A stretch of 64,000 nt of DNA from a virus (IMGVR_UViG_3300022562_000702); one strand, 5' to 3'; numbered from the stretch's first letter, positions 11,540 to 32,026 are shown. Notes: generated by a model not told the origin, from the letters alone. Translations and numbers: made by a program.

Positions 11540-11621
11540 GGCTCCTCCTTTTTCTGGTTGAATGACTCGCACTTTGCGTGCCACTCTCAGATACCGAAGA
11601 ATACCGCAAACCGGACAAAAT

Positions 11622-12512: not shown

Positions 12513-12527
12513 ACTTTAAGAGAGGAA

Positions 12528-13371: not shown

Positions 13372-14107
13372 GTACAAACTGATGTTGCGGCCCACAGAAG
13401 ATGTGACAGCCGTATGGCAGGATGTTGCGACTCTGGTGCGATCTACAGGAGACCTTGTTCTCCGCAAAACACAGAAGGTGTCCTTTCTCGATACGGCGGA
13501 ACACAGTCTGCGTGAAAATGGCTATGTTCTCAGACGCCGATTCCCGTCTTCTGGAGTGCAGTACACACTCAAGCGACGTTCCCCAGACATCTTCATTGCA
13601 CGAGGGGTGAAGATCAAATCCAAGCACGATCTGAGAACCAAGCTGGAAGAAGACATTTCTTTCCCTTTCCGAAGCAGATTTTCGTATTCAGGGACCATCG
13701 ATCTCAAAAAAGACGTTAAGCGACCGGAAAAACTATTCTCAAACCTGCAAGGGACGGAAAAACTGATTCCCGTCAACGGGGTTGAAGTCTCAGAAGAGGT
13801 CTACGAAGGTGTGATCGTTTTGGACTGCATCCCTGTCTCAGCCGGTGTTCTGCTTTGGAAAAGGGATGGGAAACCTCTTCTCGGCGAGTTTTCTTTCCGT
13901 TACAAAAGTCGTAATGGCAAGTACCCGCTGACTCTGGCCCTCGCTGCCAAGTCGCTTTACGAGGATCTCCAGACCTTGCCAACGGTTGATGCAACTGGTA
14001 TCACTAAAACTCAGTTCGTCTATGAGGAGCCGTCTTGGATGCAGGCAACCATGCTCCAAGCGACGGCCTGCAATTGGAGCATGAATGGACCATCCCAAGG
14101 AACTTGA
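13352..14107 (+). CDS. hypothetical protein, weak CYTH/triphosphate-tunnel-like pattern
   Basis: N-terminal SREYKLML, then VLRRRF and YTLKRR resemble the beta1 ExK, RxR and TxK motifs of CYTH enzymes. The match is degenerate. Confidence 0.4.
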   Translation: MKITSREYKLMLRPTEDVTAVWQDVATLVRSTGDLVLRKTQKVSFLDTAEHSLRENGYVLRRRFPSSGVQYTLKRRSPDIFIARGVKIKSKHDLRTKLEEDISFPFRSRFSYSGTIDLKKDVKRPEKLFSNLQGTEKLIPVNGVEVSEEVYEGVIVLDCIPVSAGVLLWKRDGKPLLGEFSFRYKSRNGKYPLTLALAAKSLYEDLQTLPTVDATGITKTQFVYEEPSWMQATMLQATACNWSMNGPSQGT

Positions 14108-14402
14108 GTGGATTGAGGGCGATCTCCCGCCCGTCGAAGATGTCCCGTACAATTGTTGGGTTCTTGTATGGTTCGTCCATGACATCACACAAGAAGAACA
14201 CGACCGTTGTGCCAAAATGATGTCCAACTATCCCAACATGATAGAGCCCGGCCCAGAGCACAACGGCAAGTTGCGACGGATTGAGATGTGTCATCCATGG
14301 ATGGACAATCTCAATCCTCTCAGATGGTGCGACAGCAGCGGAATGCCTGTAGGATACCACGAAAAGGCTGGATTTTGGGCTTGGCTCAACAAGGGCAGTT
14401 GA
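14085..14402 (+). CDS. hypothetical protein
   Basis: 105-aa ORF, co-directional with neighbours. Confidence 0.35.
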   Translation: MDHPKELEWIEGDLPPVEDVPYNCWVLVWFVHDITQEEHDRCAKMMSNYPNMIEPGPEHNGKLRRIEMCHPWMDNLNPLRWCDSSGMPVGYHEKAGFWAWLNKGS

Positions 14403-14511
14403 TTTTCTCTACAAAATGGGTATCGTGCTTTAACCCGCCCGGTTTCCAGCCTTACAATGTCGGTGTGACCGGTCAGCTTGTACGAAATTCCCAAAGCATG
14501 AGGAGACATGT

Positions 14512-16095: not shown

Positions 16096-16123
16096 TCCCG
16101 TCTCATCTTCATGCGGGAAGAGA

Positions 16124-16153
16124 AAGGCCGGGGAGGCAACTCCCCGGCCTTTG
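16124..16153. terminator. bidirectional rho-independent terminator (13-bp stem AAAGGCCGGGGAG/CTCCCCGGCCTTT, GCAA loop, T-rich tail)
   Basis: Read in the sequence between convergent genes. Confidence 0.65.
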
Positions 16154-16158
16154 TCGTT

Positions 16159-17160
16159 TTACTCCTGTTGGAGTTCTTCAAGCTCTTTCTTCAGCTTCTC
16201 ATTTGTCTCTTGGAGAAGCTTCTCCTTGTCCTCACGCTGCTTCTTGCGCCTCTTCTCGGACTTGAGCCGGTCGATCTCCTGACGAAGCTGATCGTTCTCA
16301 TCCTCCAGATTGTCAATGATCTGGTCCTTGTTGGTCTTCCGCTTCTTTGTTGCCTTGACGACGGCAACCTCTTCAACCTCTTCCTCGACGCCCTGAAGGA
16401 AGATCTTCAAAGACGTGAACGTGCTTTCGGTATCACAGAAGACGGTGCGGAAGTTCTGACCTGTCAGATTGCCTTCGACCGTGCAACCATCCTGAGTCAC
16501 AGGCTCTTCGTTGAACGATAGGTTCTGTGTCTTGACGGTTCTCGACTTGGCTGATCTCAGCGGCCCGCTGCTCATGCTTGTGCCGCCACCAGTGCTACAC
16601 TGGATGCTGTTTGAGGCATAGAGATCGCCGCCACCGCTGCTCATACCATAGCTGACACCGCCGCCACCTTTGGAGGCTTCGCCAGCGTCACAGGTCCACG
16701 TCGGGCCGTTGTACCATGGGTACGGCTGGGGCTTGGGCATCGGCACAGGCCGAGGATAGTAGTGGTCGTGGTGATGATGAACATCACGGTAGATCACCTG
16801 CGGCTGTTCCTTCTCAAGATAGAAGCGAGCTTCGATGGTTCCCTTCACCTTGTCAGGATTCGGGCCGTTCTTACCGTGCTCGATGGCGTCTTCGCTGTCC
16901 AGACTGACGAACTTGAACGCACGATCCACATCGTGGTGGCGTTTGATGTCCGTGTAGTCGTTGGCATTGACGATATAACCGGCTCCAGAGACGTTTTCGC
17001 CGTCGATATAGATCTGGACGACGGCTCTCCGGTTATTCTTGTTGCGGAACCTGAGAACGTATTCGGTTCCAAAAGGAAGGGTGACTACGCCGTTGGCGAG
17101 TTCTTTTTGTGGGCGTCCGTTGACGAGAACGCACATGACAAACTTATTAGAGTACACCAT
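16159..17160 (-). CDS. hypothetical protein with Gly/Ser-rich middle and Lys/Glu-rich C-terminal coiled coil
   Basis: 333-aa ORF. The C-terminus is KKRKTNKDQIIDNLEDENDQLRQEIDRLKSEKRRKKQREDKEK. Confidence 0.5.
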   Translation of the reverse strand: MVYSNKFVMCVLVNGRPQKELANGVVTLPFGTEYVLRFRNKNNRRAVVQIYIDGENVSGAGYIVNANDYTDIKRHHDVDRAFKFVSLDSEDAIEHGKNGPNPDKVKGTIEARFYLEKEQPQVIYRDVHHHHDHYYPRPVPMPKPQPYPWYNGPTWTCDAGEASKGGGGVSYGMSSGGGDLYASNSIQCSTGGGTSMSSGPLRSAKSRTVKTQNLSFNEEPVTQDGCTVEGNLTGQNFRTVFCDTESTFTSLKIFLQGVEEEVEEVAVVKATKKRKTNKDQIIDNLEDENDQLRQEIDRLKSEKRRKKQREDKEKLLQETNEKLKKELEELQQE

Positions 17161-17320
17161 TGTACCTCCTAGCTGAGCTAACCCTCATCCTCTGTTGGGC
17201 AATGCGAAAGTGCTTTGGGGCTAAGTCAAACCCCGAGGAATGCTGCTCAATGTCTTATAGTATTGTTTGCGTCTTAAAAAATCAACCTGAATCCTAAATA
17301 GTTTAAGATAGGAGAAAGCC

Positions 17321-17821
17321 ATGGCAGTTCGAACATTTGATGATTTTTTGGCCGAGCAGGCGTTGAATGAGAATATCGGGGCGATTTTGGGGAACGTCTT
17401 CAAGATGGCTGGCCCCGCTATGAAAGGTCTGTTGCAGAAAGCCGGTCCAATGTTGACGAAAGCCGCCGAGCAATATGGCCCTCAAATGGTGCAATCCGCC
17501 GCTCAACAAGTGATTACTCAGATGGGTAATGGTGGTGCTCAGCAGGGCCAGCCGGGACAAGTCCCACAGCAAACTCAGGCTGGGCAGGCCCCTCAGACGA
17601 CGCAGCAGCGTCAAACAACTCAGCAATCTCAGATGCCCCAGACGCCAGATCCTCAGAACTCTAAAGCCTTCGAGGACTTACTTCAGGCATCTCTCAATCA
17701 GTTGGCGATCAAAGGCACTCAGGCCGGTATGAATGCTCTGGGCAGCATGTTTCAGGGAAGACAGACTGCCGGGGCACCAACATCGACGGGAGCAATGCCA
17801 GCGGCCCCAGCAGCCGTTTAA
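17321..17821 (+). CDS. hypothetical Q-rich low-complexity protein
   Basis: QQGQPGQVPQQTQAGQAPQTTQQRQTTQQSQ tract after a helical N-terminus. Confidence 0.45.
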   Translation: MAVRTFDDFLAEQALNENIGAILGNVFKMAGPAMKGLLQKAGPMLTKAAEQYGPQMVQSAAQQVITQMGNGGAQQGQPGQVPQQTQAGQAPQTTQQRQTTQQSQMPQTPDPQNSKAFEDLLQASLNQLAIKGTQAGMNALGSMFQGRQTAGAPTSTGAMPAAPAAV

Positions 17822-18388
17822 TCAGACTTGCACAGTCTGCCACTCTTCGTCCATGGCTTTCTGTTCGTCCATGGATGCAGCCGCTTCTGCCTCTGCGTGT
17901 TGAATTGGCAACACCTTGTGGTCCGCATACTGGATCACGATCTTGTGTGATACATGATCGCATGGCGCACCAGCACCGAAAGTGTCACAGTCCGTTCTCA
18001 GCGGACATTCGTGGCTAAGTAGCTTCAGGTTCTTGAACTTGAAGCAGGCCACTTCCCTTGACTGTTGATCGAGGAAATATAGTTTCAGGCTGTCTTGCTC
18101 GAAGTCCACAAAGGAACTCTTCTGGCCTTCAGCGTAACGATCATTGATGGTGCTGAACCAAGCGAATGCTTCGAAGTTCGGCGTCTCAAGAATCTTCACT
18201 TCCAGTGTCTTTTCCACGCAGTTCCATTCAACTCGGGTGACGAACTTTTCGAGTTGAGGCAAGAACTTGGGAATCAAGCGAAACGTGTTGGTTGACGGAT
18301 ACAAATTTCTCGCCTTCTTCAGCTTCATAGGCGGGTCGCAAGCCCGGCCTTCGCTGAGGTCAATCCTGACCTTCTCGTGTTTGTTCAT
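17822..18388 (-). CDS. hypothetical protein
   Basis: 188-aa ORF. Confidence 0.45.
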   Translation of the reverse strand: MNKHEKVRIDLSEGRACDPPMKLKKARNLYPSTNTFRLIPKFLPQLEKFVTRVEWNCVEKTLEVKILETPNFEAFAWFSTINDRYAEGQKSSFVDFEQDSLKLYFLDQQSREVACFKFKNLKLLSHECPLRTDCDTFGAGAPCDHVSHKIVIQYADHKVLPIQHAEAEAAASMDEQKAMDEEWQTVQV

Positions 18389-18397
18389 TCATTCTCC

Positions 18398-19138
18398 TTA
18401 ATCGTAGATCTGAAATTGGTGACGGTCGCTGATGTAGCGGTTTCCGCCAAAGTCCAATTGGAACCAGATATCATAGATGCCGCAGTCCAAATCTTCGGTG
18501 TCGAACTGGTAGAAGCCAAATCGCTTCTCTCGGTAATCAACCAATTCCTTGTCAACGATCAATCTAAGATCTTGTTCGGCGGGCAAACAATCACCACATT
18601 TCTGCTCGATTGAAATCTTGAGGTCTGACACGATTGCCAGATTCTCATAGTAGGCTCTGAGATCGCTGGCCGTAGGCACGTTCGGTAGGATCTCGATGAT
18701 GATGTATTGTTTTGATCCCTGTCGGAGTTTGTTCGGCTGAAAGCGGAACTGGAAGTCATAGACAATAGGAATCGGAGTGGTGTACCACAGATTCGGATAA
18801 ACCTCGAAGCATTGCTCGACGCTTGCATCCGGCTCATCTGTGGAAAAACTTACGGTCCACACATCAAGGTATCGACCGATGGTGTAGACATTCTGGCCCA
18901 GTGGCAGAGTTAGAAGATGTGTGCCTGTATCCTCCAACGTGACTGCTGTGCCATCAATAGTTTCGACAAGTCTGCGGCCATCTGGGTTGGCAGCCGAGGC
19001 GTTGTCTCTTTCGAGGACATAGATGTCAACCTTGCTGATCGCTTGAAGATCGGCTAGGTTGTTGCTGTTGTAAGTGAATAACCGAAGATTTACGGTGTCC
19101 CCTACGGCTGGGTTTTGATACCGTTCTTTTGTCGCCAC
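18398..19138 (-). CDS. hypothetical protein
   Basis: 246-aa ORF. Confidence 0.45.
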   Translation of the reverse strand: MATKERYQNPAVGDTVNLRLFTYNSNNLADLQAISKVDIYVLERDNASAANPDGRRLVETIDGTAVTLEDTGTHLLTLPLGQNVYTIGRYLDVWTVSFSTDEPDASVEQCFEVYPNLWYTTPIPIVYDFQFRFQPNKLRQGSKQYIIIEILPNVPTASDLRAYYENLAIVSDLKISIEQKCGDCLPAEQDLRLIVDKELVDYREKRFGFYQFDTEDLDCGIYDIWFQLDFGGNRYISDRHQFQIYD

Positions 19139-19443
19139 GACTTGCCTCCTCCTTTGAGCTTGTTGATCTTCTGGTTGATGACACCTTGGACAATGGAGTT
19201 GATTTGATTAACTCTTTCGTGCATTTTTCTTGAGTTGTGTCGTCTTAACCAGAAGTTTTTCATGGGCTTATTTCCTTTGTTTCTTCATCTTATCTATGGC
19301 CTCTTGCTCCTTTCTTTTCTGTTCAATGAACCGCTGAATGAGCCACTTGCGTTCATGCACTGGCAGCGTCATGCAGTCCTGTTTCGACATGTGCATGTGA
19401 TATTGGAAGAAGAATAGCTCCTCCATGAGCGTCTGCCATAGCT

Positions 19444-20664
19444 CTACGCTGGGACTTCGCTTACCATCTTCTTCCTTGGGAAGAAAAAAGATGTCTCCAA
19501 CGGAAGATCGATTGTGAATTCTTCCGTGCAAGAGGGACAAAGCATTCCAATTTCAGTGTCCACCCCGAAAGGAGGAACGCTGATTTCGTTTCTCAGATGA
19601 GCAACATCGGCAATCGGCAATCTCTTCAATAGATGCTGGATTTCCTTAATCATCGTGACGCCTTCAAGCTCTTCCAGAAGCAACGCAGTTCGGTACAAGA
19701 GAGTGTCGTCTTCGCTCTGATCACCCCACTTAGAGATGCGTCGGTCTCGGTACTGCGAGATGGCTTGTTCGTCAGTACCAGTAGACAAGCGATAGCGATA
19801 GCTGAAGCCGCTCACTGGCAGGATGCCAGAAAGCTGATCTTGTCCGAAGTCTTCGGGACAGTCTTCCACGTCGAGCATGTTCAAGTCGATGACGGTCGAG
19901 AACTTGATACCACACTCTGGGCATTTGATTTCCACGTCGTATTCCGGCGTATAGGAAATACCACGCAGATAGATCAAAAGGTGCGTTCGGTCTGCCGACA
20001 GGAGATTTTCGGTGATGATGTTTTCCTGAATGCACCGCTGGAAGATCATGTCGATGGCCTTCCCTCTCTTGACAAATCGAGGGGTCGCCAAAATCTGCTC
20101 TTCTTCACCGGTCATCGGTCGCACATGAACCGTCTCAGGGATGTCGTCATAGAACTTCGCTCGGGACGGCCAAGTGAAGGTTTCCCAGTGATGCTGTCCA
20201 GCAAGCTTCTGCAAAGCCGCTTCCAGATTGTCAGTTCCGGTAACTCGGTAGGCTTGGCTGTCAGGAGTGGGAGTCTTTCCTGTGGCCGCACGGCGTTCTT
20301 GAAACTTGTTCTGGGCCTTGGGTCGCATCTGAGATGATTCATTCATCGGACGATTCTCAATATCGTCCATGTGCTGGCGTGCCCTCATAGCTGCTTGGAA
20401 CTGTGGCGGTACATTGCCAGAGATCTCAAAAGGGGCATCCTTGGGAGTGAAAGGAGTCGGCGGTTCTCTGCCAGTTTCTCTGGCAACTGCCTGCTGCACA
20501 TTTCTGATTTGGGCCAAGGGGTCGCCTTCCTGCGACTCTGGGACATTTCCCAAATCGTTCTCTGAAGCCTGATCAATTTCTTCACGACTGATCTTCTTCT
20601 GTTGTCTGTAGACATTATCGTCTGCCATATTCGTCTCCTTCACACTATGATGATTCAGATCCAT
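19444..20664 (-). CDS. hypothetical protein with two CxxC zinc-ribbon motifs
   Basis: CPECGIKFS and CPSCTEEF motifs in a 406-aa ORF. Confidence 0.5.
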   Translation of the reverse strand: MDLNHHSVKETNMADDNVYRQQKKISREEIDQASENDLGNVPESQEGDPLAQIRNVQQAVARETGREPPTPFTPKDAPFEISGNVPPQFQAAMRARQHMDDIENRPMNESSQMRPKAQNKFQERRAATGKTPTPDSQAYRVTGTDNLEAALQKLAGQHHWETFTWPSRAKFYDDIPETVHVRPMTGEEEQILATPRFVKRGKAIDMIFQRCIQENIITENLLSADRTHLLIYLRGISYTPEYDVEIKCPECGIKFSTVIDLNMLDVEDCPEDFGQDQLSGILPVSGFSYRYRLSTGTDEQAISQYRDRRISKWGDQSEDDTLLYRTALLLEELEGVTMIKEIQHLLKRLPIADVAHLRNEISVPPFGVDTEIGMLCPSCTEEFTIDLPLETSFFFPRKKMVSEVPA

Positions 20665-21074: not shown

Positions 21075-21365
21075 ATGAAAGGCATCATCACATTCTACAT
21101 CAACGTAGAAACGGCAGAGGAGGGCAAGAAACTGGAGTTTCTTTCCCTCATGAAACAAGCAAACACGGAACTGATCCAAAAATTGGAACAGCACGGGTAC
21201 TGGGTTATGGTCGTTCCCGTTGAGAAGGAATCCAGCCGAATTGAGAAGGTTGACTTCGATCTGCCCTTCCCACGATATGTTCTGCCGCACATTGATCTGG
21301 CGGAACAAGAGAAGATCATGGACGAGATCAAAACCAAGGCCCTCAAAGATGTGGAGAACGAATGA
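21075..21365 (+). CDS. hypothetical protein
   Basis: 96-aa ORF. Confidence 0.4.
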   Translation: MKGIITFYINVETAEEGKKLEFLSLMKQANTELIQKLEQHGYWVMVVPVEKESSRIEKVDFDLPFPRYVLPHIDLAEQEKIMDEIKTKALKDVENE

Positions 21366-21706
21366 TTACACTAACAATGTTTATCTTGGCGACAATTGGC
21401 CTCACCAACATCCTTGTACACGGAAAGGTCTTGGATCTGATCAAGATCGGGGACAAGTCTCTGAGAGGTTGGATGAAAACTCCCAGCTTTCTCGGCGAAA
21501 TGTTGGATTGCTACGAATGCACCGGCTTCTGGGCCGGGTTGCTCATGGGCCTGATTTTCTTCTGGGGATCATGGCTTTTTGTTCTGACAGCCGCTTTTGC
21601 TGGCAGCGTGGTCGCTCAAACTTACACCGATCTGATGTACCTACTACGGAGCAAGATTGATTTTGTAGTGGAGGATTCAGATGCCCAAGAAGAGAGAAAC
21701 GGTTAA
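21362..21706 (+). CDS. hypothetical membrane protein
   Basis: Hydrophobic segments (ITLTMFILATIGLTNILV, WAGLLMGLIFFWGSWLFVLTAAF). Confidence 0.4.
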   Translation: MITLTMFILATIGLTNILVHGKVLDLIKIGDKSLRGWMKTPSFLGEMLDCYECTGFWAGLLMGLIFFWGSWLFVLTAAFAGSVVAQTYTDLMYLLRSKIDFVVEDSDAQEERNG

Positions 21707-22055
21707 ACGATACCTGATCTTTTGCGAACCCTGTTCGTTTAAGAAGGTGGTTGAAAGCGACAAGCCCGAGGATATGGTGTTGATCAAACGCAGTCCTGTG
21801 CCGGGCGGATCGCCACGTCTTGATGCGGCTACCAAACAGATTAAGGGACGACCCGTACAAGAACAAAAGACAATGTGCAAGTGCCCTCAATGTGGCCGTG
21901 GCGCAACACTCAAAGATCTACCGTCTGTGTACAAGATGACGTTTGAACAACTTGATGAGCAGGCACGATTGCGTGAAGAAGAACTCGAAAAACAACGACG
22001 CCTTGAAGATGGTCGGCCTCACGAAAGAAGGCCAGACCCAGACTTCATTGGATAA
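21681..22055 (+). CDS. hypothetical zinc-ribbon protein
   Basis: CEPCSF...CKCPQCGRG four-cysteine pattern. Confidence 0.4.
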   Translation: MPKKRETVKRYLIFCEPCSFKKVVESDKPEDMVLIKRSPVPGGSPRLDAATKQIKGRPVQEQKTMCKCPQCGRGATLKDLPSVYKMTFEQLDEQARLREEELEKQRRLEDGRPHERRPDPDFIG

Positions 22056-22063
22056 GGAGAAGC

Positions 22064-22396
22064 ATGAAGAATTTTTGGTTGAATAGGAAGAAAGTGGAAC
22101 CCATCGTGAATTTCGATTCGAGTGATTTGAAGATTTGGGGGACTACCTCAGCATTGGATCGTGTCTCTCTCAGAAGAGCCATTATCGTTGTGAAGAAAGA
22201 GGTCCAGCGGCTCGTTCGAGAGAATTTGTTCGAGCCAGAAGGGAAGCTGATCGCTGTAGTCTCAGACTATCTGTTCTCAATCATCGGCAGCAAATACATT
22301 CGTTCCTACCAAGTTTGTTCCGACTATACTCTGGTAATCTTTGCAGATGATGTAAGATTAAGGGTAACGTATGAAAAAACGAATCAGCATTCATGA
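22064..22396 (+). CDS. hypothetical protein
   Basis: 110-aa ORF. Confidence 0.35.
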   Translation: MKNFWLNRKKVEPIVNFDSSDLKIWGTTSALDRVSLRRAIIVVKKEVQRLVRENLFEPEGKLIAVVSDYLFSIIGSKYIRSYQVCSDYTLVIFADDVRLRVTYEKTNQHS

Positions 22397-22763
22397 TGTG
22401 AAGCAGGCACTTCTCGATGAACGGTTTCGATCTAAACTACCAGAAAACCTACGAGAAGACGTTCAGAAGTTTCTGAAGAATCCGGGTTGTGCCTGCAATC
22501 ATCCTATATACATCAGGGTGATGCAGAACGCACGCCCTCAACTGGTGGAATACTTCCCGACGAAGGAAACACCAACCGAAGAGGAAGCCAAGAAGGAGTT
22601 TGAAAGCCTCTCCAAGAACAATTGGCAAGTCATCAACTGTTCTGTCCACGAATTGGCAGGGGAGTTGAAGAAACTTGGTCCGGGGCGAAAGCAACTCGAC
22701 ATTGCACGATTCGAAGACCAAGTGACAGTAGTAGTGAATCACTTGGACGAAATCTATGGCTAA
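22371..22763 (+). CDS. hypothetical protein
   Basis: 130-aa ORF. Confidence 0.35.
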   Translation: MKKRISIHDVKQALLDERFRSKLPENLREDVQKFLKNPGCACNHPIYIRVMQNARPQLVEYFPTKETPTEEEAKKEFESLSKNNWQVINCSVHELAGELKKLGPGRKQLDIARFEDQVTVVVNHLDEIYG

Positions 22764-23037
22764 CTTTTGGATTGCTCAGCGACATAAGATCATCTTATAC
22801 ATTGAAGCCATGCTGGCTAAGGATTCGATGTCCGTGCCGATGAGGTACATCCAGTTTGCCATCAACCACAATCGACAATTCCTTCAAGCCGACAACATCC
22901 AGTATGATCGTCAGGAGTTGATTGAGGGATGCTTCCTTCACTGTCGGTATCTCTTCTACTCCGATGCCAACGATCAGGCCAAGATGGATTCCGCTGCCCA
23001 GCGATACAACCGCTGGAAGAAGTCTATGACCGGGTAG
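22756..23037 (+). CDS. hypothetical protein
   Basis: 93-aa ORF. Confidence 0.35.
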   Translation: MANFWIAQRHKIILYIEAMLAKDSMSVPMRYIQFAINHNRQFLQADNIQYDRQELIEGCFLHCRYLFYSDANDQAKMDSAAQRYNRWKKSMTG

Positions 23038-23962
23038 GAGCATAGAAGGCGGCTGTCTGGAGCTTCTGGCAGGATTCGATCATCTTCTCGGGATATGCCC
23101 GGTACTTCGTCAGATCCATCGGCCACTTGTCTGTTCTGAGCCGTCTGGCCCCTAATTTCATAGCATCCCCGTAGAACGTCTGTGCTCGCTTGAAATCCCT
23201 TGACAGGTGATAGAAGGCATCTCCCATCAAACACCAGAACTCGGCCATCAGGGGCCTTTCTGAGAGGCATAGAGTGAGATTCTGAAGGGCTGGCCGGATC
23301 TTCTTGGAATACACAATGCTCGCCATGGCGTAATAGTACCGATTCATGATCGCCGACATCGAATTTGAGGGGTCCAGAGCCATGTAATGCTCCGAGATCG
23401 GCATGAACCTAGCCCAATTCCCTTGCGCCAGCAAGGTGCAGGCTTCATAGTACCACGGCGAAATGGCTGTTGGCTTGTCTTTCTTCCAACTCTCAATCCT
23501 GCGGAGAACATCATCGTAGTCCGTTCGGCCACTGGAATAGAAGACAGTGCCCACTTCCTCGTCACAATCTGAAATTAACCTCTCATAGACGGGATTTTGG
23601 AACTTGTGATTACGGCCCTTCCAGAATCGAACCTCTTTTGACACAACCTTGTTATTAACAATTGTTGCATATCGGTGGACGCCATCGCAGGAATCAATGA
23701 GATGGTGCCCTTGAACCAATGCTTCCCACGGTTCGATGAAGAAGTTCCAGCCCTCTGATCCCATAGAGATCAGATGATTTCGTGCTTCGTGGCGTGGTCG
23801 GTCGAGTTGTTCCACGAGGGCACCGTGATTCTGGCAAATGGCAACGGTGTCATCTGTGCTGCCGAGATCGGCGACCAAGATTTGATCCACGAACGAGATC
23901 GACTCAAGGGTTTTGAGGATTGTCTGGCTGTTGTTCTTGGTCAGAATGTGTGCGACGGCCAT
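23024..23962 (-). CDS. glycosyltransferase family 2-like protein
   Basis: N-terminal VAHILTKNN...VADLGSTDDT (GT2 DxSxD-type motif). Confidence 0.65.
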   Translation of the reverse strand: MAVAHILTKNNSQTILKTLESISFVDQILVADLGSTDDTVAICQNHGALVEQLDRPRHEARNHLISMGSEGWNFFIEPWEALVQGHHLIDSCDGVHRYATIVNNKVVSKEVRFWKGRNHKFQNPVYERLISDCDEEVGTVFYSSGRTDYDDVLRRIESWKKDKPTAISPWYYEACTLLAQGNWARFMPISEHYMALDPSNSMSAIMNRYYYAMASIVYSKKIRPALQNLTLCLSERPLMAEFWCLMGDAFYHLSRDFKRAQTFYGDAMKLGARRLRTDKWPMDLTKYRAYPEKMIESCQKLQTAAFYAPTRS

Positions 23963-24098
23963 ATTTCTCCTTGATCAACTCTTCGAAGGCTTCCGCTTCG
24001 TTGGTCCGATTACAATTTTTGTAATAGGCGGCGATGCGTTCATACGCCATCTTGGTCGGGCTGGCCTGCAAATCCGCATAGAGCCTTACTATGTTCAT

Positions 24099-24200
24099 GT
24101 AAGTAAATGAGTTGCGGGGAAAAAGGATTTTCCTTCGGAAAAAGATTGCCGTGGTGCAGATATATAGATACCCATTTAGCACCCTGTTTCGGAGGACATC
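24099..24200. promoter_or_regulatory. intergenic control region upstream of the sigma-factor gene
   Basis: Contains the GGAAAA...TTTTCC inverted repeat within GGAAAAAGGATTTTCCTTCGGAAAAAG, and a GATATATAGATA element ~60 nt upstream of the ATG. Confidence 0.3.
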
Positions 24201-24761
24201 TTGGCAAGCGAATATCTGAACAACAAGAACTTCGAAGCGATCATCCAGTCGTTTCAATACCACAAGCGAGAGAAGTCTCGCTACGAATTGATCCTGAAAG
24301 ATTTTGCAGAGACCCACCAACGCCGCCTTAAGAAATACAAAGATGATCTGAGGAAAGCCCAGCTTGAGCAAGCTTTGGGAGACTACCAAGAGTCGCTCTC
24401 AAACTTTAAGGGATTCCAAGATCAGTTGGCCTATGCGTTCTACTTGCTTTCTGAGAACATCGCCAACTACGCCAAGTTCAGCGGAATCGATGTAGACGAC
24501 GCCGTACAAGAGGGCGTCCTTATTTGCTTTGAGAAGATCGACCGATTTGATCCTCGAAAGGGCAAAGCGTTCAACTACATGACGACTTGCATCTTAAACC
24601 ATTACCGGCAGTTGTACCGAAGTGCTCGAAATTACAATGAATTGAAGAAGCGATATCACGTCTTTCTACAAGACAAGTTCGAAAGCGTGGTTTTCAGAAA
24701 TGGCAAAGAACATTCGGGTCAATTCAAAAGTTATGTTGACCAAACTTCTTCTTCGTGGTAA
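24201..24761 (+). CDS. small sigma factor containing only sigma70 region 2 (T4 gp55-like late sigma factor)
   Basis: DDAVQEGVLICFEKIDRFDPRKGKAFNYMTTCILNHYRQ fits the sigma70 region 2.1-2.3 pattern. 186 aa with no region 4. Confidence 0.7.
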   Translation: MASEYLNNKNFEAIIQSFQYHKREKSRYELILKDFAETHQRRLKKYKDDLRKAQLEQALGDYQESLSNFKGFQDQLAYAFYLLSENIANYAKFSGIDVDDAVQEGVLICFEKIDRFDPRKGKAFNYMTTCILNHYRQLYRSARNYNELKKRYHVFLQDKFESVVFRNGKEHSGQFKSYVDQTSSSW

Positions 24762-24767
24762 ACTTCT

Positions 24768-25055
24768 ATGGATATGACAAATACCAGCGTAGCCAATCCG
24801 GTACACGCAATCGAAATGCAAGAAATTATACAGAAGCTCAAGGACAACGGGTATGGGGAGCTTGTCACCTGTCTCTTGGAAAACGAGACTGACTGCTACA
24901 CCAAACGGGGTCGCCTTAATAAGAGTGCCACTTCTAGGAAGATGGGCTGGAAGTCCAAGCAACTAGAAGATGCTCTTCAGGGCATGAGAGAGATTCTCGG
25001 CAACGAGTTCTGTGATTTCATAGAAGAACAAGAAGAGGATGGCGACGAGGATTAG
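24768..25055 (+). CDS. hypothetical acidic protein, possible late-transcription co-factor (gp33-like?)
   Basis: 95 aa with a strongly acidic C-terminus EEQEEDGDED. It lies immediately downstream of the sigma gene. The gene ends with TAG. Confidence 0.3.
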   Translation: MDMTNTSVANPVHAIEMQEIIQKLKDNGYGELVTCLLENETDCYTKRGRLNKSATSRKMGWKSKQLEDALQGMREILGNEFCDFIEEQEEDGDED

Positions 25056-25609
25056 GCCCCGGCCCCAAGTCCATCGCCAGCCGCATCTTGTTCGATATAT
25101 GCTCTTGCATAGCGAATCGTGATCTCGGCCATCAATACATCTGCTTGTGCGTAGTCCAGTGTTTGGAAGTTGAGTTGCTGAGGCCAGCAATCCTCAAAGA
25201 TCCAGCTTTCGACTGTTCTACCGCACCCGTCAAGCATTCGTAACGAACACTCACGGATAAACCCGACTTGAGGGCCTTTCTCCGTGTTGGGCGGTCGAAA
25301 TATGCCATCTTTGGGTTCGTACAGATTCTTGATCCATTCCCACAGTTTGTTTTCGTTCTTCTTGAGATCGAACACCGTGACTGTGATGGGCTTCCAATCC
25401 GGCTTGCCGGGGATGGCTACATCCTCGATCAAATGGCGGACGGGGATTTCTGTAAACGTCAGATGAGGACGTGCGGCTTTGGATGGCGGCAAAGCATTGA
25501 TCGCATTCTTCTCGTCCCCAATGATGTTGTTGACCACGAAGATCCAGCGGTTCTGTCTCTTGCAGTATTGTCCGCTCTCAAGTCCAAATTGTAGTCCCAT
25601 CTTAGCCAT
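25052..25609 (-). CDS. tail tube protein paralog (gp19-like)
   Basis: Shares IPGKPDW, MLDGCG and W.QDCWPQ.LNF..LDY...D....EITIRY blocks with the three upstream paralogs. Confidence 0.6.
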   Translation of the reverse strand: MAKMGLQFGLESGQYCKRQNRWIFVVNNIIGDEKNAINALPPSKAARPHLTFTEIPVRHLIEDVAIPGKPDWKPITVTVFDLKKNENKLWEWIKNLYEPKDGIFRPPNTEKGPQVGFIRECSLRMLDGCGRTVESWIFEDCWPQQLNFQTLDYAQADVLMAEITIRYARAYIEQDAAGDGLGAGA

Positions 25610-25624
25610 CGGCGCATCTCCATG

Positions 25625-25655
25625 AAAAAAGGCGGCGGCACAGAGTACCGCCGCC
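25625..25655 (-). terminator. rho-independent terminator on minus strand (GGCGGCGG/CCGCCGCC stem followed by T6 on the minus strand)
   Basis: Read in the sequence between tube paralogs. Confidence 0.55.
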
Positions 25656-25687
25656 TTATATGATAGTATCGGGCACTGTCAGGATTC

Positions 25688-26228
25688 TTACGAACCACAC
25701 GGCGTGCAGCAGTTCTCGATAGCAAAACTCGGGCAAATAGGTGTGTATCTGACACTGGAGTAACGGAGTGTCAAATCAATCGTGGCTTCGTCCGAAGTTG
25801 CATAATCCAAGTCACCAAAATTAACCGAGGTCGGCCACAGGTCCGCAAGCTCCCATACTTCGAGGAGCCCACCGCAACCATCGTACATTCTAAGGATTCC
25901 CACCGCTGCGTAATTATTCCTCGATGCCCCCATTGGAAGCTCTGTTTGGCTTGCTGAATGATACGTTGGTTGGGTCGATGGCATCGATGTAAGTTACATT
26001 GATGGTTTCCCATGCGGCCTTCCCCGGAATCCAAGTCTTGGCGTTCAAGAAGTTGATTTCCGTTTCTTCGATACTGAGATTTGGGCGAGCAGCCACCTTG
26101 ACAAAGTGCGGCGGCACTGACCGGCTGGAATCGCCACAAATCCCCTGTACCTCGAAGGTAAATCGGAACTTCCTCTTGAAAATGAGGTTTCTGAAGCCCA
26201 AAGGCCCAATACCCATATTTTGTGCCAT
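25688..26228 (-). pseudogene. tail tube protein paralog interrupted by a frameshift (two overlapping ORF halves, 25914..26228 and 25688..25984)
   Basis: The N-terminal half aligns with paralogs up to TYID. The C-terminal half (RMYDGCGGLLEVWELADLWPTSVNFGDLDYATSDEATIDLTLRY) continues the alignment in another frame. A short direct repeat, tcgatggcatcgatg, lies at the junction. Confidence 0.5.
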
Positions 26229-26255
26229 ACTTGATCTCCTTCAACTCCAGTTCGA

Positions 26256-26858
26256 TTAGAACTGGAGGGCCTGTCCTCCCTGAGACGTAGAACCACAACC
26301 ATTGCAGCAAGGCGTTGGCTGGAAGTCCGGGCAGAAGCTTCGGTAAACAACGTCCCAGTAACGGAGCGTCAATTCGATTGTTGCTTCGTCAGAAGCAGAG
26401 TAATCGAGATCGCCGAAGTTGATCGCTGTCGGCCAGAGGTGTTGCATCTGCCATTGTTCAAGCAGAACACCACAGCCGTCGTACATGCTCAGAACACCAG
26501 TAGCATCCCAGTCACGACGTGTGCCTTGTGTCAGGCGAATCGGGTCTGTGAAGTCATACATGGTAGCCAGCCAGTTCCATAACTGCTGCATTTCTGAGTG
26601 TGCTACGTCGATGTAGGTCACGGTGATGGTTTCCCAAGACGCTTTGCCGGGAATCCACATCTTACCGTTCAAGTGGTTGATTTCTGTTTCCTCAATACTG
26701 AGGTTTGGTCGTGAAGCTACCTTCACGAAGTGTTCGGGAATGACGTTTTTCTCGTTATTGCAGAACCCGAACACCTCGAAAGTCCAACGGAACTTTCTCT
26801 TAAAGGTGATATCGGGTTGGCCGATAACGCCAATACCCATCGGTTTTCTTTCAGCCAT
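26256..26858 (-). CDS. tail tube protein paralog (gp19-like)
   Basis: 200 aa with conserved blocks FVKVASRPNLSIEETEI, WIPGK, YDGCG and NFGDLDYSASDEATIELTLRY. Confidence 0.65.
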   Translation of the reverse strand: MAERKPMGIGVIGQPDITFKRKFRWTFEVFGFCNNEKNVIPEHFVKVASRPNLSIEETEINHLNGKMWIPGKASWETITVTYIDVAHSEMQQLWNWLATMYDFTDPIRLTQGTRRDWDATGVLSMYDGCGVLLEQWQMQHLWPTAINFGDLDYSASDEATIELTLRYWDVVYRSFCPDFQPTPCCNGCGSTSQGGQALQF

Positions 26859-26884
26859 TGTTACTCCTGAATTTGATTAGATCT

Positions 26885-27466
26885 TTAGGATTCGCAGCCT
26901 TGGCAGGTTCCCTGTGGGTTTGCCATACATGCCACACCTTCGATCTTCGCTTTGCTGAATCTAAAGGTTACGTCGATTGTGCATTCATCGGACGATGAAT
27001 AGTCCAAGTCGCCAAAGTTGACCGACTGGGGCCACGCATCTTGAAATGTCCATCGTTCCATTACTGTTCCGCAGCCGTCGAGCATCTCTAAGGTGCCCGT
27101 ACCAGCCCATCCTCTCTTTTCTGACTGCGGCAAATCTCCACTTCCACTGGAGCCTGCTTCACCAACAGCTTTGTTGAAGTCGTAAACACTAAGAATCCAA
27201 TCATAAAGCGGCCCTAGTTTTGAGTCGGCCACGTCATAATAGGTCACTGTAAGGGGTTGCCAGCGACCCTTGCCCGGAATCCAAGTGATTGCGTTCAGAA
27301 AATGGAGTTCTGTTTCATCGATATCCAACTGAGGACGACTCGCCACCTTAACAAACTGCTTTTCAACAGATTGCCCGTTGGGAGTGATCCACTCCATCAA
27401 ATATCGAAATTTGCGTTTGAGGATGATGTTGGGTTGCCCTAGCTCCCCAATTCCCATATTTGCCAT
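26885..27466 (-). CDS. tail tube protein paralog (gp19-like), first after the sheath
   Basis: 193 aa with the same conserved blocks. It lies immediately downstream of the sheath gene. Confidence 0.65.
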   Translation of the reverse strand: MANMGIGELGQPNIILKRKFRYLMEWITPNGQSVEKQFVKVASRPQLDIDETELHFLNAITWIPGKGRWQPLTVTYYDVADSKLGPLYDWILSVYDFNKAVGEAGSSGSGDLPQSEKRGWAGTGTLEMLDGCGTVMERWTFQDAWPQSVNFGDLDYSSSDECTIDVTFRFSKAKIEGVACMANPQGTCQGCES

Positions 27467-27497
27467 CTAACTACCTCTTCCTGAGAATCAAAGGTTT

Positions 27498-27518
27498 GGG
27501 GCTGGCGGGACCAGCCCC
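27498..27518 (-). terminator. GC-rich hairpin (GGGGCTGG/CCAGCCCC) between sheath and tube genes, possible partial terminator or attenuator
   Basis: Inverted repeat read in the 66-nt intergenic gap. Confidence 0.35.
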
Positions 27519-27532
27519 GGAACCTTATTTGA

Positions 27533-29887
27533 TTAGAATGTATCTGCGTTCTCAGCGAAGCTTCCTGTTCGGTGGACTGAGAACTCGATGAAGATGAACT
27601 CCGCAGCCCGGATCGGGATGACGCCAACTCGTGCTCGCATTTCATTGCGGTCGATAACGTCTGGAGTATTCAGTTCTTCATCACACTTGACTCGGAAGTC
27701 ATCTACGCCTCGTCCAACCTGAATCTCTGTGAGAATGGCGGTTGCGATTCTGATGAACTTCTGTCGCAAGATCTCGTCATGCGGATCGAAGAGCAACTGG
27801 CGAGAGGCCGCACGGATTCGTTTCTCGATCACGAACATGAGTCGTCTCACATTCACACGGTCGAGAGCCGTTGGGCGTCGTTGCAGTGTCTTCTGGCCCC
27901 AGACAAGGAAGCCGTCGAAGTCCACGAACTGCACAATCGGGTTGATTGCGTTTCTGTAGCCGTACATCAGGTCACGTTCTTCAAGCGTTGGTCGGCTGAA
28001 GACATCTGTGATCTGCGGGACGATACCTCGGGTCACACCGGCTGGTGCGAACCACGGGGCCGACAACTGATCGCTTCGAGCGATGGTAGCCATGATCGAT
28101 CCCGAAGGAGGACACCACACGTCTACTCTGTTGAAGTTGTCACGCAGCTTGACCCACGGCCAGTACAGAGCACCGAAGTCGCTGTCGAATCGAGTGGTGT
28201 TCAGCGGGTGAGCACCATTCTGCCAATCGATGATTTCCTGAACGGTCAAACCGAACGGAGGATCGATGATTGCCAAGCAGTCCATACGCACGTTCTGGCA
28301 CAGATCCAACAGGGCTGTAACAACAGTTGTGCTGCTGTGGCCCGGAACTGCGATCAGGTCGATGTCGATCTGCTCGGGTTCGCTGAGAGCGAAGATGCCT
28401 GTAAAGGCAAGTTGATTTCCGACGATCAGAGCATCTTGCAAGTCAGGATCAGATGGGATACCGTCCGAGCCCCCAGAGAGGGAGTAGGTGCCATCCAGCG
28501 GCGGTGCCGAAATCGAGGTGTTGTCTTCGATACGGAGCCAATCACTCACGAGTGAGATGAAGGTCTCAACATAGAAGCGAGAGTTCTGATCTTTCGTCAG
28601 ACCACCCCAAGATTCGACCTGCACACCGTTGTTATAAACCTGAATGATGAAGTTGCCTTCTCGTACATTGTTTTCAACGACGATCTGAGTCTGGTTGCCG
28701 TCGATACCCGCCGAGTCTGCCATAGCCGTGAAGGTGATGGCCCCGAGGGCATTCGCCGAACCGTTGATTCGACCGTAAGTTGCAATTGCTGCATCGCCCG
28801 ATGTTCCGATTGGGCTCAGACCAGCCTTGGTAACGGACTCGAAACCAAAGATGTCCAATGCAGTGCTGTCAGGCTTGAGAAGCATTCGGGCGTCTCGACC
28901 ATGGTGGTCGGTCGTGAATGTCAGGTTGTCACCAGTTGCACTGGCTGTCCAACCGCCCGGCAGAGTTCCGCCGTTCTCAACCTTCTGCGAGTTGATTTCT
29001 GTAACGACTTCAGCAATCGTTACCTCTGTTCCTTCCAAAGCGGCCAGATCGATTGTCTGAACCACGTTGTCGATCAGAACATTGTCCGTACCGTCGATGA
29101 CGATCAGGATGTTCTGGTCAGTCAGACCTGCGAAGTCGTACTCGCCTGCGACCTGATACGAAGCTGGGTATCTGTCTTTGCTACCAGTGATTGTGGCTTG
29201 CGTCATACCAGTACCAAGACCGGTGACGTTGCCGTCCACAACCAAACCGCCATAGATGGCGTCTTGAACAGAGACGAATTCCAGTTCGGCATCAGGACCA
29301 AAGGCCCATGTTGTTCGCACGCCGATCTTGGTGTCCGTGGTGTGGCTGAAGAACTCGATACCATCAATGCTACCGTCAAGCTGTAGGTTCAGGTCTTCTG
29401 CCAATTGTGCCGCAGTGTATGTTCCGGCCAACACCACCAATGTCTTCGAGTGAAGAACGCTGTTCAGTCTCCATCGGAAGAAGGAGTCATCAGCGAAGGT
29501 GTATGGTCCAGCGGTGTCAGATTCAACACTGATCTGCCCACCAGCAGAAGGAACATCTACTGATGCCGTTTGTGCTGCTTCGTCACTTACGGCGTCCTCA
29601 TCAGCAACACGGACAACATAAAGTTCGTTTGCAATGAGGAGGTATTGTTCTGCTGCATAGATGAGGTAAGGATCGCCAGATTCAGGATGTGGGTATCCAA
29701 ACACTGTGTTCAGTTGTCTCTGGGTGGCGATCAATGTGGGAACATTAACCGGACCCTTGCTGGCGAAGCCAACAAGACCTGCACGGTGGAAGGATTGCTC
29801 CGGTGCAACGAAGCTGAGATCCTTTTCGGTGATTCTTACGCTCGGTGAAATTGTGTTCGACGGTGGAAATCCCCTTAAAATAGCCAT
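27533..29887 (-). CDS. contractile tail sheath protein
   Basis: 784 aa. The C-terminal region (…FDPHDEILRQKFIRIATAILTEIQVGRGVDDFRVKCDEELNTPDVIDRNEMRARVGVIPIRAAEFIFIEF) has the conserved sheath C-terminal domain pattern. Tube genes follow. Confidence 0.85.
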   Translation of the reverse strand: MAILRGFPPSNTISPSVRITEKDLSFVAPEQSFHRAGLVGFASKGPVNVPTLIATQRQLNTVFGYPHPESGDPYLIYAAEQYLLIANELYVVRVADEDAVSDEAAQTASVDVPSAGGQISVESDTAGPYTFADDSFFRWRLNSVLHSKTLVVLAGTYTAAQLAEDLNLQLDGSIDGIEFFSHTTDTKIGVRTTWAFGPDAELEFVSVQDAIYGGLVVDGNVTGLGTGMTQATITGSKDRYPASYQVAGEYDFAGLTDQNILIVIDGTDNVLIDNVVQTIDLAALEGTEVTIAEVVTEINSQKVENGGTLPGGWTASATGDNLTFTTDHHGRDARMLLKPDSTALDIFGFESVTKAGLSPIGTSGDAAIATYGRINGSANALGAITFTAMADSAGIDGNQTQIVVENNVREGNFIIQVYNNGVQVESWGGLTKDQNSRFYVETFISLVSDWLRIEDNTSISAPPLDGTYSLSGGSDGIPSDPDLQDALIVGNQLAFTGIFALSEPEQIDIDLIAVPGHSSTTVVTALLDLCQNVRMDCLAIIDPPFGLTVQEIIDWQNGAHPLNTTRFDSDFGALYWPWVKLRDNFNRVDVWCPPSGSIMATIARSDQLSAPWFAPAGVTRGIVPQITDVFSRPTLEERDLMYGYRNAINPIVQFVDFDGFLVWGQKTLQRRPTALDRVNVRRLMFVIEKRIRAASRQLLFDPHDEILRQKFIRIATAILTEIQVGRGVDDFRVKCDEELNTPDVIDRNEMRARVGVIPIRAAEFIFIEFSVHRTGSFAENADTF

Positions 29888-29890
29888 CTG

Positions 29891-30115
29891 TTAATCTCCC
29901 TTGCGAATTTCTTGGTTAGGAATGTATCTAGTGGAGATGAAGCCATCTTTCTCCAGCCTATCGATGTATTCCGTGTGTAATTCGTCTTCGATACGCCTGA
30001 CGTTTTGATTCTTGCCGACTCCCGGAATGTTTAAGGTCGTGAACTGGCGAGGGGCCGTCCTTGATCTCACAATCACTTGGATAGGGCTCTTGAGTTTGTT
30101 TTTGATCTCAATCAT
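29891..30115 (-). CDS. hypothetical small protein upstream of sheath
   Basis: 74-aa ORF with start/stop overlaps to neighbours. Confidence 0.35.
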   Translation of the reverse strand: MIEIKNKLKSPIQVIVRSRTAPRQFTTLNIPGVGKNQNVRRIEDELHTEYIDRLEKDGFISTRYIPNQEIRKGD

Positions 30116-31128
30116 TCTTCCAATTCCTTTACTGCTTGTTCCAACCTTGCCAAGACTTCGGTAATGTCGTCGTCGTTTGGATGATCGGTGATTTCCACTC
30201 TGGTTTTCAGAACAGCCTTTTTTCTAACAATCGGTTGAGCGACGAATGTTTCAGCCGTCACTCCGAATTGATACTTAAAGACTCTTACTGCTTGATCCCC
30301 CGGTTCAACGTCCACGTTATTAGCGATGGAATCAATTTTTACACCTATCTCCCAAGCGATGCCTCTTACCCGTATGTATGCCAACGGGCTAAATTTTGTG
30401 ACGATTTGAGTGAGAATCTGATTCATGTCCTCTTCGTACAAAGTCCATGCGTAAAGCGTGTAGCCAATGTCGATTGGGATACCTCTCGAAACACCGAAAA
30501 TTGTGTCCCGTTCATACTTCTCACTGACTGTGAAGCCCGGCTTCCAGTCATTTTTCATCGTCCTTAAATAATCGATGGCCTTGTGGTAGGTGTAGCGGTT
30601 CTGGTTGTAGTTGTACTGAGTGGCATTGATCGCCAACATTGGCAATCGAACACGATCAACTACAAGGCTTTCGTCTTTTCTGACGTTCTCTTGAAGGATG
30701 TAGGCTGCGGCCTTCTCCTGAGTTGCCCAAATGATGGGGATCTGATGAGCCTTCCCTGATTCATCTAAGACTACAATATCACGAAACAAATCCATCACGG
30801 CTTCATCAGTCCCTCGAATCGATTTGGCGTATCGGTAGACTGTGTTACGATTGGGTTTACTTAAACCTTGTTCGTTAATGATGTGACCGGTCTGTTGTGG
30901 ATCGCAAAGAGCACTTGCCCCTTGCCCGAGTTTGCTTTGGGTCGCTTGCTCCAGCCACGACATGTCACGTCCTGTAACGTCCTTCTGACTATCAAGAAAT
31001 GGCTTATGATCCAACGTGCCTGAATCTTTGTCCGTTTCGCCATCCCGACAATAGGGTGGCGGCGTGTCGATGTTCAAGCTCGGGATCTGGCCCGGTTCGT
31101 TACAAGGATTGAGATCTGGTTCTGACAT
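30112..31128 (-). CDS. hypothetical protein, possibly tail/neck-associated by position
   Basis: 338-aa ORF immediately upstream of the sheath module. Confidence 0.4.
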   Translation of the reverse strand: MSEPDLNPCNEPGQIPSLNIDTPPPYCRDGETDKDSGTLDHKPFLDSQKDVTGRDMSWLEQATQSKLGQGASALCDPQQTGHIINEQGLSKPNRNTVYRYAKSIRGTDEAVMDLFRDIVVLDESGKAHQIPIIWATQEKAAAYILQENVRKDESLVVDRVRLPMLAINATQYNYNQNRYTYHKAIDYLRTMKNDWKPGFTVSEKYERDTIFGVSRGIPIDIGYTLYAWTLYEEDMNQILTQIVTKFSPLAYIRVRGIAWEIGVKIDSIANNVDVEPGDQAVRVFKYQFGVTAETFVAQPIVRKKAVLKTRVEITDHPNDDDITEVLARLEQAVKELEE

Positions 31129-31192
31129 TTATGCCTCTGCTTATTTATGCGGTTCTGGTGTGTTTCTGACTCTAATAAGATGGTGCCCCATC

Positions 31193-31333
31193 ATGAAACC
31201 ATACAAGATAATTAAGACACAACATTCCAAGAAGAAGCCGGTTATCATCAACAAGCTTCATGCGCCCAGAATTCCTCTGCGGTTCTTTAAGGCAAAGAAG
31301 CCGTATCTCAAGAAGTACGAAATCGAGTGGTAG
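31193..31333 (+). CDS. very basic 46-aa ORF on opposite strand inside a minus-strand intergenic gap
   Basis: MKPYKIIKTQHSKKKPVIINKLHAPRIPLRFFKAKKPYLKKYEIEW. No clear Shine-Dalgarno. Confidence 0.15.
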   Translation: MKPYKIIKTQHSKKKPVIINKLHAPRIPLRFFKAKKPYLKKYEIEW

Positions 31334-31334
31334 G

Positions 31335-31934
31335 TTATTGAGGCCCCTGCTGCCCGCCAGCCAAACCCAAGTCTGTGCCGCTTCCCAGATCCTTGACGCT
31401 GTTGATCTTGAAGTCCGGTTCCCTCTGTGTGACTTTGCCTTCGCCAGTCGTAAGCGACTCCTGAAAGCGTTGGCACATGACCTGAAGTCGGAGTTCTCCC
31501 CAAAGCTTGAAGACCTCGACGTTACGCTGAATGATCACCCAGTTCTCCCGCTTGTGCGGCGTGAAGATGCGCCCTCCAATTTTTGGAGCGTGACCAATCT
31601 GAGCAAGGACGTGGCGATAGTTGAACTCAAACATCATCTCGTCTGGTGAGTCGATACCGAAAGCCGTCATGGCATTCTGAGAATGGATCGGCTCGTAGTA
31701 TCCTGTGATGCAGATCGGATGCTGAGACCAAAGCTTGTCACGAGCTTCAACATACAAGTTGTCGATGTTGTTGACGTTGATGAACAAGTCGTAATAGAAG
31801 AGTGGCGAGCCGCCGATCTCAATCACTTCTTGGTCCCAAATGTTGAAGAGATCGTGCTCGGGATTCTCCGGGTCAAACTGTTGCAGTGTGCCCGTTACGT
31901 TGTACTTTGATCCGTCTGGGTTGAATATCGCCAT
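31335..31934 (-). CDS. hypothetical protein
   Basis: 199-aa ORF. Confidence 0.45.
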   Translation of the reverse strand: MAIFNPDGSKYNVTGTLQQFDPENPEHDLFNIWDQEVIEIGGSPLFYYDLFINVNNIDNLYVEARDKLWSQHPICITGYYEPIHSQNAMTAFGIDSPDEMMFEFNYRHVLAQIGHAPKIGGRIFTPHKRENWVIIQRNVEVFKLWGELRLQVMCQRFQESLTTGEGKVTQREPDFKINSVKDLGSGTDLGLAGGQQGPQ

Positions 31935-32026
31935 GCCATTATGTAGGTGTTCTTAACTCAGTTTCCGGTTATTGAGGGATACATAAGACAGATCGAGAGA
32001 ATTGTCTCGCAAACAGGAGGTTTCAA

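Follow-up and report, generated by a model that had tools for sequence, protein, structure and literature searches.

Contractile tails are usually described as containing one tube protein and a few highly diverged adaptors that share the tube fold. In phage T4 the genes for these proteins are scattered, with gp3 at 75.4 kb, gp19 at 100.6 kb, and gp48 and gp54 at 120.7-122.7 kb, a spread of 47 kb, and their sequences are too diverged to be aligned (gp48 and gp54 are 364 and 320 amino acids [aa] in length). The locus analyzed here lies in a 64,000-nt stretch of viral DNA, IMGVR_UViG_3300022562_000702 (the window), in which, by contrast, a tail sheath gene is followed by four adjacent, alignable gp19-type tube paralogs of 185-200 aa, called A, B, C, and D in their order after the sheath, without significant similarity to T4 gp3, gp48, or gp54. 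The contrast with T4 that had been drawn in a preliminary description of this DNA was well founded. Three aspects of the array are new: the tube gene proper has been triplicated, and the copies kept under selection, across the clade; a conserved terminator inside the array separates D from the rest; and A, B, and C bear at their C-termini a Cys motif that is strictly conserved. We put at roughly 0.6 the probability that this is the sheath-tube operon of a T4-superfamily megaphage in which B is the major tube subunit, D a low-copy end ring, and A and C minor or position-specific components. A literature search, limited in coverage, yielded no account of such a four-gene array or of its Cys motif in jumbo phages or megaphages.

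Tandem tube-fold genes directly after the sheath gene, as found here, are also present in the Mimasvirus and Rak2-like phages GAP32 (Cronobacter) and CBB (Pectobacterium). GAP32 carries three of them (GAP32_199-201; 229, 258, and 364 aa), the first two of which fall into phrog_4542 like A-D, and CBB possesses the same three-gene set (CBB_205-207). In these phages the tube gene proper is single, as against three copies in the window, their third paralog (364 aa, phrog_13438) has no counterpart seen beside D, and their proteins lack the C-terminal Cys motif and are only about 25-33% identical to A-D. Mass spectrometry of virions revealed CBB_205 and CBB_207 (PMC5259590), providing a precedent for several tandem tube paralogs acting as virion proteins. 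Two adjacent tube paralogs lie by the sheath gene of Atu_ph07, where gp127 matches A, B, and C, and two rather than four lie by that of phage G, a likeness of arrangement for which we claim no homology to A-D; both tube subunits of phage G were detected by proteomics (PMC12484599). Tandem tube paralogs are thus a known theme in very large myoviruses, the arrangement having forerunners among cultured jumbo phages in the three-gene sets of GAP32 and CBB and the two-gene sets of Atu_ph07 and phage G.

All genes of the array are on the minus strand. The sheath gene (27533..29887; 784 aa) matches PF04984, PF17482, and phrog_23 (E 2e-82), and its product is 77-90% identical across relatives in the clade. 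It is followed by A (26885..27466; 193 aa; phrog_4542, E 9e-26), B (26256..26858; 200 aa; E 4e-29), C, which is present in the window as two overlapping open reading frames (ORFs; 25914-26228, 104 aa, and 25688-25984, 98 aa) that both match the phrog_4542 “tail tube protein” (E 7e-10 and 2e-10), and D (25052..25609; 185 aa; E 1e-22). The four genes thus match the gp19-type tube family (PF06841/phrog_4542) significantly at the level of the family profile and adjoin the sheath gene in a contractile-tail module. D exceeds the cut-off of PF06841 (T4 gp19) with 29.6 bits against 28.2, while A (22.2 bits) and B (24.9 bits) fall below it with the correct region matched; the C-terminal fragment of C also gives a weak PF06841 match under the cut-off, and the N-terminal fragment has no Pfam match. 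When a hidden Markov model of all four groups was run on the 64-kb window, A-D were the only tube-fold ORFs recovered, and a megablast search of window positions 25000-30000 against a phage collection returned zero matches. The arrangement of a sheath followed by four tube-fold genes, first described from the sequence alone, is confirmed by these Pfam and PHROG matches. The sequence blocks said to be shared by all four proteins are fully evident in A, B, and C, in which 53 positions are conserved and identical once the gap in C is restored; D carries diverged versions of them, and 25 positions are common to all four. Amino-acid identity is correspondingly 44-62% among A, B, and C and 26-36% between D and any of these three.

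That the genes encode the gp19 tail-tube fold we regard as certain. A profile of B orthologs searched against the Protein Data Bank (PDB) matched T4 gp19 over nearly the full length (E 1.7e-4), and profiles of A, B, and C built from the intact genes of relatives aligned to gp19 in hhalign with E-values of 6.5e-3, 3.2e-4, and 3.6e-6. AlphaFold2 models of B and D match tube proteins and present a beta-sandwich with one flanking helix. The top Foldseek match of the B model (predicted local distance difference test score 73) is the T4 tail tube (5w5f, E 3e-9), B being taken as the copy nearest to gp19. The D model reaches its best template-modelling score (TM-score), 0.61, with the T4 tube terminator gp3. 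Comparing folds does not, by itself, tell a tube role from an initiator or a terminator role. Identity of any of the four with the gp54 or gp48 initiators was considered and rejected, as there is no sequence homology and A-D reach only 185-200 aa compared to the 320 and 364 aa of gp54 and gp48, which carry extra domains.

The array is not peculiar to the window. Homologs of B number more than 1,200 among metagenome proteins; the best 120 of these are 65-92% identical to it, and some of the 120 are encoded on contigs of 693, 668, 652, 622, and 477 kb. With contigs of 650-693 kb, the clade includes some of the largest known phage genomes. Gene order was examined in three large contigs (652-693 kb) and 34 IMG/VR loci, and the order gp15, 74-aa ORF, sheath, A, B, C, D, small convergent ORF, and sigma factor is invariant wherever the contig is long enough, with gp15-sheath-A-B-C-D kept in about 30 loci. 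The gp15-like tail sheath stabiliser (30112..31128, minus strand; 338 aa; PF16724, E 4e-16; phrog_227) opens this conserved module and lies upstream of the sheath gene in every relative of sufficient length. Between the two is a conserved 74-aa ORF (29891..30115, minus strand) with no Pfam or PHROG match, for which a gene of 73-74 aa is called at the equivalent position in the relatives L002, L003, L004, and L006. The gp55-like sigma factor (24201-24761) is encoded downstream of the array on the opposite strand, together with the small conserved convergent ORF.

Positional orthologs in these relatives are 63-82% identical for B, 59-66% for C, 45-57% for A, and 38-52% for D. In a neighbor-joining tree from which GAP32 and Atu_ph07 were excluded, every positional group is monophyletic, with bootstrap values of 89% for A, 99% for B, 29% for C, 37% for D, and 63% for B and C together. 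The ratio of nonsynonymous to synonymous substitution rates (dN/dS), taken from sites at which synonymous changes are unsaturated, is 0.03-0.22 for each paralog, indicating that all four genes are functional in the clade. Both the positional order and all four genes have been retained under purifying selection since the triplication. The nearest sequenced relatives outside the clade, LR756511.1 (a 595-kb uncultured phage), L042, and L043, are 47% identical to B and have in common with the window a neighborhood of gp15, sigma-factor, and glycosyltransferase genes; unlike here, the sheath gene of LR756511 is not located between gp15 and the tube genes. These three encode only two tube-fold proteins, one of the A/B/C type and one of the D type. 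Profile comparison in hhalign pairs A, B, and C with GAP32_199 (E 1e-10 to 1e-14) and Atu_ph07 gp127 (E 1e-16 to 1e-18), and D with GAP32_200 (E 2e-8). The sequences show two old lineages, the tube gene proper (A/B/C type) and a divergent D-type partner, and the split between them is older than the Rak2-like/GAP32-like jumbo phages. A, B, and C arose by a clade-specific triplication of the tube gene proper that predates the radiation of the clade, with a branching order that is probably (A,(B,C)). Three recent, alignable tube genes beside an older fourth offer a natural experiment in how the tube fold becomes specialized as an initiator, a terminator, or part of a mixed lattice.

The preliminary description called one of the paralogs frameshifted, which is correct for C in the window sequence only and does not stand as a biological feature. 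A JGI contig (3300015263 Ga0183003_10000294, 64,830 bp; L002), retrieved by an exact-protein look-up of B, is 100% identical to the window over positions 21297-31858 apart from 41 extra bases at 25946/25947, and it encodes an uninterrupted C of 193 aa; gene calls on the Logan contig SRR14699976 are the same, again with a C of 193 aa. The 41 bases absent from the window encode LFDWLSSVYAFHLP, a segment that maps on the AlphaFold2 model of B to the sole alpha-helix of the tube fold. The gap can also be read from the window itself, where the N-terminal blocks of B and C are spaced by 624 nt and the C-terminal blocks by 598 nt; this difference of 26 nt is not divisible by three and becomes 15 nt when the 41 nt are restored. 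In every relative with a full array (22 distinct arrays) C is intact, at 187-216 aa. The break in C is a private 41-bp deletion, and neither a programmed nor an ancestral frameshift. The two overlapping ORFs do span most of a tube protein, as would be expected if C were made by programmed ribosomal frameshifting or were an ancestral pseudogene of the lineage, and yet the shift is accounted for by the 41-nt gap relative to an otherwise identical contig, the break recurs in none of the 22 arrays, and with the codons of the only helix missing no frameshifting ribosome could restore a complete protein. Programmed frameshifting, for which the position is unconserved in relatives and essential codons are deleted, is ruled out, and taken together with an ancestral pseudogene it forms a reading to which we give almost no credence. 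The apparent frameshift or pseudogene call for C is corrected accordingly.

The deletion itself may be a real strain variant or an assembly error. The window differs from Ga0183003_10000294 by three mismatches in 19,847 bp (window positions 1-19847, compared with L049) and reaches about 10.7 kb past the end of that contig, which indicates that it is an independent assembly of a near-identical population. The truncated 104-aa product of C had no record in the protein collection in which it was looked up. Scans of IMG/VR and JGI metagenome contigs for the deletion and intact junctions matched neither of them, including the positive control, and are uninformative. Other gene breaks were seen in assemblies from the clade. 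The sheath gene of L004, a contig of about 667 kb from ENA, is split into 343 and 467 aa (L004:2793-5193), and its D gene (L004:7354-7785) is shortened relative to Logan contig L005, the A-D proteins of the two being otherwise identical; L041 has B in two pieces, of 106 and 80 aa. The breaks in L004 and L041 look like assembly artefacts, and frameshift artefacts of this sort appear to be common in assemblies of this clade.

Two hairpins had been noted in the array and both were recovered. The one between C and D is a canonical intrinsic terminator (25629..25657, minus strand), with a 13-bp stem containing nine GC pairs followed by TTTTTTC, and the 79-nt spacer in which it lies folds at -29.5 kcal/mol (z -3.6). 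In most of the 22 relatives the stem and T run are kept by structure while their sequences differ, and the ribosome-binding site of D comes next. The A-B and B-C spacers are 15-26 nt long and unstructured in most relatives. The second hairpin, a GC-rich stem-loop in the sheath-A spacer (27495..27521, minus strand; dG -27.9 kcal/mol, z -3.85), lacks a U tract; stem-loops of -24 to -35 kcal/mol and differing sequence occupy the equivalent position in 20 relatives. A motif resembling ACTcTgATAgAAg was observed directly 5' of the C-D terminator stem (25656-25667, minus strand) and is present in most relatives despite the differing stems; it could be a promoter or processing site for D. The motif beside this terminator (ACTNTNATANAA) was rejected as a general promoter, as it occurs a single time in the window.

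A, B, and C end in the motif LRYS[DE]VxY-x2-3-C[PG]-x5-6-CC-x-[GP]-C, which is strictly conserved in the loci compared (L001-L043) and is encoded in the window at 26885-26945 (A), 26256-26330 (B), and 25688-25760 (C), on the minus strand at the C-terminal ends of the genes. The single A/B/C-type genes of LR756511 and L042 carry it as well, and among the orthologs compared it is missing from all D-type proteins, GAP32_199, Atu_ph07 gp127, and the L043 protein. The four Cys residues are spaced as C-x7-8-CC-x2-C. The motif may join tube subunits through a metal site or a disulfide staple, and a Cys-rich tail of this kind may stabilize very long tails.

Under the reading we prefer, the locus is the sheath-tube portion of a late structural operon in an uncultured T4-superfamily megaphage, and B would polymerize inside the sheath as the major tube subunit. 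B has the lowest median proportion of nonsynonymous differences (pN; 0.166, compared to 0.22 for C, 0.285 for A, and 0.324 for D) and the most sheath-like codon usage, with the top sheath-referenced codon adaptation index (CAI) in 14 of the 17 genomes; the codon usage of A and D is like that of the six-copy gp15 gene. Only two of the sites conserved inside each of the groups A, B, and C differ from one group to another, as opposed to the 53 shared by all three, which suggests that the triplet differs by a shift in rate and not by a switch in function; it is on these three grounds that B is proposed as the major subunit. A is the least constrained of the three. D would be transcribed only by read-through of the terminator or from a promoter of its own, and would probably form a low-copy ring at one end of the tube, as suggested by its location behind the conserved terminator and by its being the sole copy without the C-terminal Cys motif. 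Because D lacks a C-terminal tail and has a slightly higher TM-score to gp3, we lean slightly toward a gp3-like, head-proximal terminator over a gp54-like initiator. In phiKZ and Goslar, C-terminal extensions of the tube subunits thread into the layers above (PMC13250141; bioRxiv Goslar paper), and by analogy a subunit lacking one would be suited to the end of the tube nearest the head. A and C would most likely be duplicates under relaxed constraint that supply minor, position-specific rings or sub-stoichiometric subunits; they may also be true partners in a mixed tube, although a role as equal partners of B is unlikely. For annotating uncultured relatives, this reading would give a simple rule, with B as the tube proper and D as a minor paralog of the GAP32_200 type.

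Several observations weigh against this assignment of roles. The median CAI values differ modestly (0.705 for B, 0.675 for C, 0.639 for D, and 0.613 for A), and the terminator before D is absent in L004 and L006, with no clear one in L013 and L037. Bootstrap support for the monophyly of C (29%) and D (37%) is weak, and hhalign comparison of each ortholog profile with the single T4 gp3, gp48, and gp54 sequences gave no signal. The sequence covered is 64 kb of the genome, and separate equivalents of gp48, gp54, or gp3 may lie elsewhere in it. The copy numbers that we infer derive solely from conservation, codon usage, and the terminator.

A different arrangement, which we consider possible but doubtful, is a heteromeric tube in which A, B, and C co-assemble as hetero-hexamers or alternating rings, with the Cys motif linking the subunits and D capping the tube. 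The retention of all three genes under purifying selection throughout the history of the clade would be expected in this case, as would their placement in one transcription unit with short, mostly unstructured spacers, and the 53 identical positions, which cover the N-terminal arm, the core strands, and the Cys motif, should suit a single lattice. Hetero-hexameric tube rings have a precedent outside phages, as the title of PDB entry 9vnd names a heterohexamer of Hcp2 and Hcp3 from the type VI secretion system of Bacteroides fragilis. However, equal partners should match in constraint, whereas B clearly leads C and A in constraint and codon usage; more than two paralog-specific residues should have become fixed at obligate heteromeric interfaces; and more distant relatives make do with one A/B/C-type gene. 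The fullest form of this idea, a truly heteromeric tube capped by D in which the Cys motif cross-links the subunits through metal or disulfides and so stiffens a tube of great length, is a shade less likely again; if true, it would be the first case in a tailed phage of a heteromeric tube stapled covalently or by metal. Less likely than either is that A and C serve as spares of B or as variants of it for particular conditions, for example for other hosts or for escaping tube-sensing defences, so that losing one is tolerated. The relaxed constraint on A and C relative to B would agree with this, as would the disruptive deletion in C in the independent window assembly, since a deletion that is real and prevails in its sample would mean that the phage can do without C, at least for a short time. 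C is intact in the other relatives, though, with a dN/dS of about 0.05-0.2 that is not neutral, and the reality of the deletion depends on reads in a clade where frameshift artefacts occur in the sheath gene of L004 and in B of L041.

It is very improbable that the four genes are an assembly artefact or that the locus encodes an extracellular contractile injection system. Assemblers can go astray on tandem homologs, but the best DNA blocks between the copies are only 67-79% identical over 125-136 nt, too low for a collapsed or duplicated repeat, and the four-gene order was recovered independently from dozens of samples and by different assemblers. The possibility that the array is an artefact of a repeated region, raised in the preliminary description as grounds for doubt, is thereby set aside. 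The resemblance to injection systems suggested there has some basis in the tube-fold paralogs of about 150 aa found in such systems (Afp1/Afp5/Afp7 and Pvc1/Pvc5/Pvc7), where one paralog makes up the tube itself and the rest contribute single rings at the baseplate. These are the top fold and sequence matches for D and among the top matches for B, but their sequence similarity is marginal, the best PDB sequence matches of the D profile being Afp5, Pvc1, and Afp1 at E 0.05-0.1. Those systems are bacterial injection particles without a capsid, whereas the window holds a T4-like phage late module with gp15, a gp55-like sigma factor, and a baseplate hub gene, and its relatives lie on phage contigs of 650-693 kb (652-693 kb for the three large contigs examined); the locus belongs to a phage and not to an injection system.

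Some further features of the window and its relatives were recorded. Upstream of gp15 is a conserved ORF of 199 aa (31335-31934, minus strand), 55-80% identical in relatives, which has no Pfam, PHROG, or PDB sequence match. It gives a weak hhalign match to the T4 neck protein gp14 (E 0.018, 102 columns), and if it is gp14 the order gp14-gp15 would be T4-like. The same ORF was rejected as a gp3 equivalent, given the lack of a PDB sequence match and a sole, weak signal to gp14. The T4 late promoter TATAAATA has zero occurrences in the 64-kb window. The short strings CATAAATAAG, CATATAAGG, and CATAATGG precede gp15, D, and the 199-aa ORF, respectively (window positions 31145-31165 and 31940-31960, minus strand), and may represent a late-promoter element for the adjacent gp55-like sigma factor. 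One lineage, L004 and L005, carries insertions downstream of D, before the sigma-factor gene, namely a LAGLIDADG homing-endonuclease gene (379 aa) and a DUF4379 gene, and L006 has a further LAGLIDADG gene upstream of the module; this conserved structural region seems to be a target of mobile endonucleases. Other cargo genes elsewhere in the window, all on the minus strand, are tandem Band_7/“lipoprotein” paralogs of 535 and 531 aa (42349-43956 and 43994-45589), a fused CN-hydrolase/NAD synthase gene with NUDIX and cytidylyltransferase-like neighbors (49162-51345), and a metallo-beta-lactamase-fold gene flagged as anti-Pycsar Apyc1-like (10790-11650).

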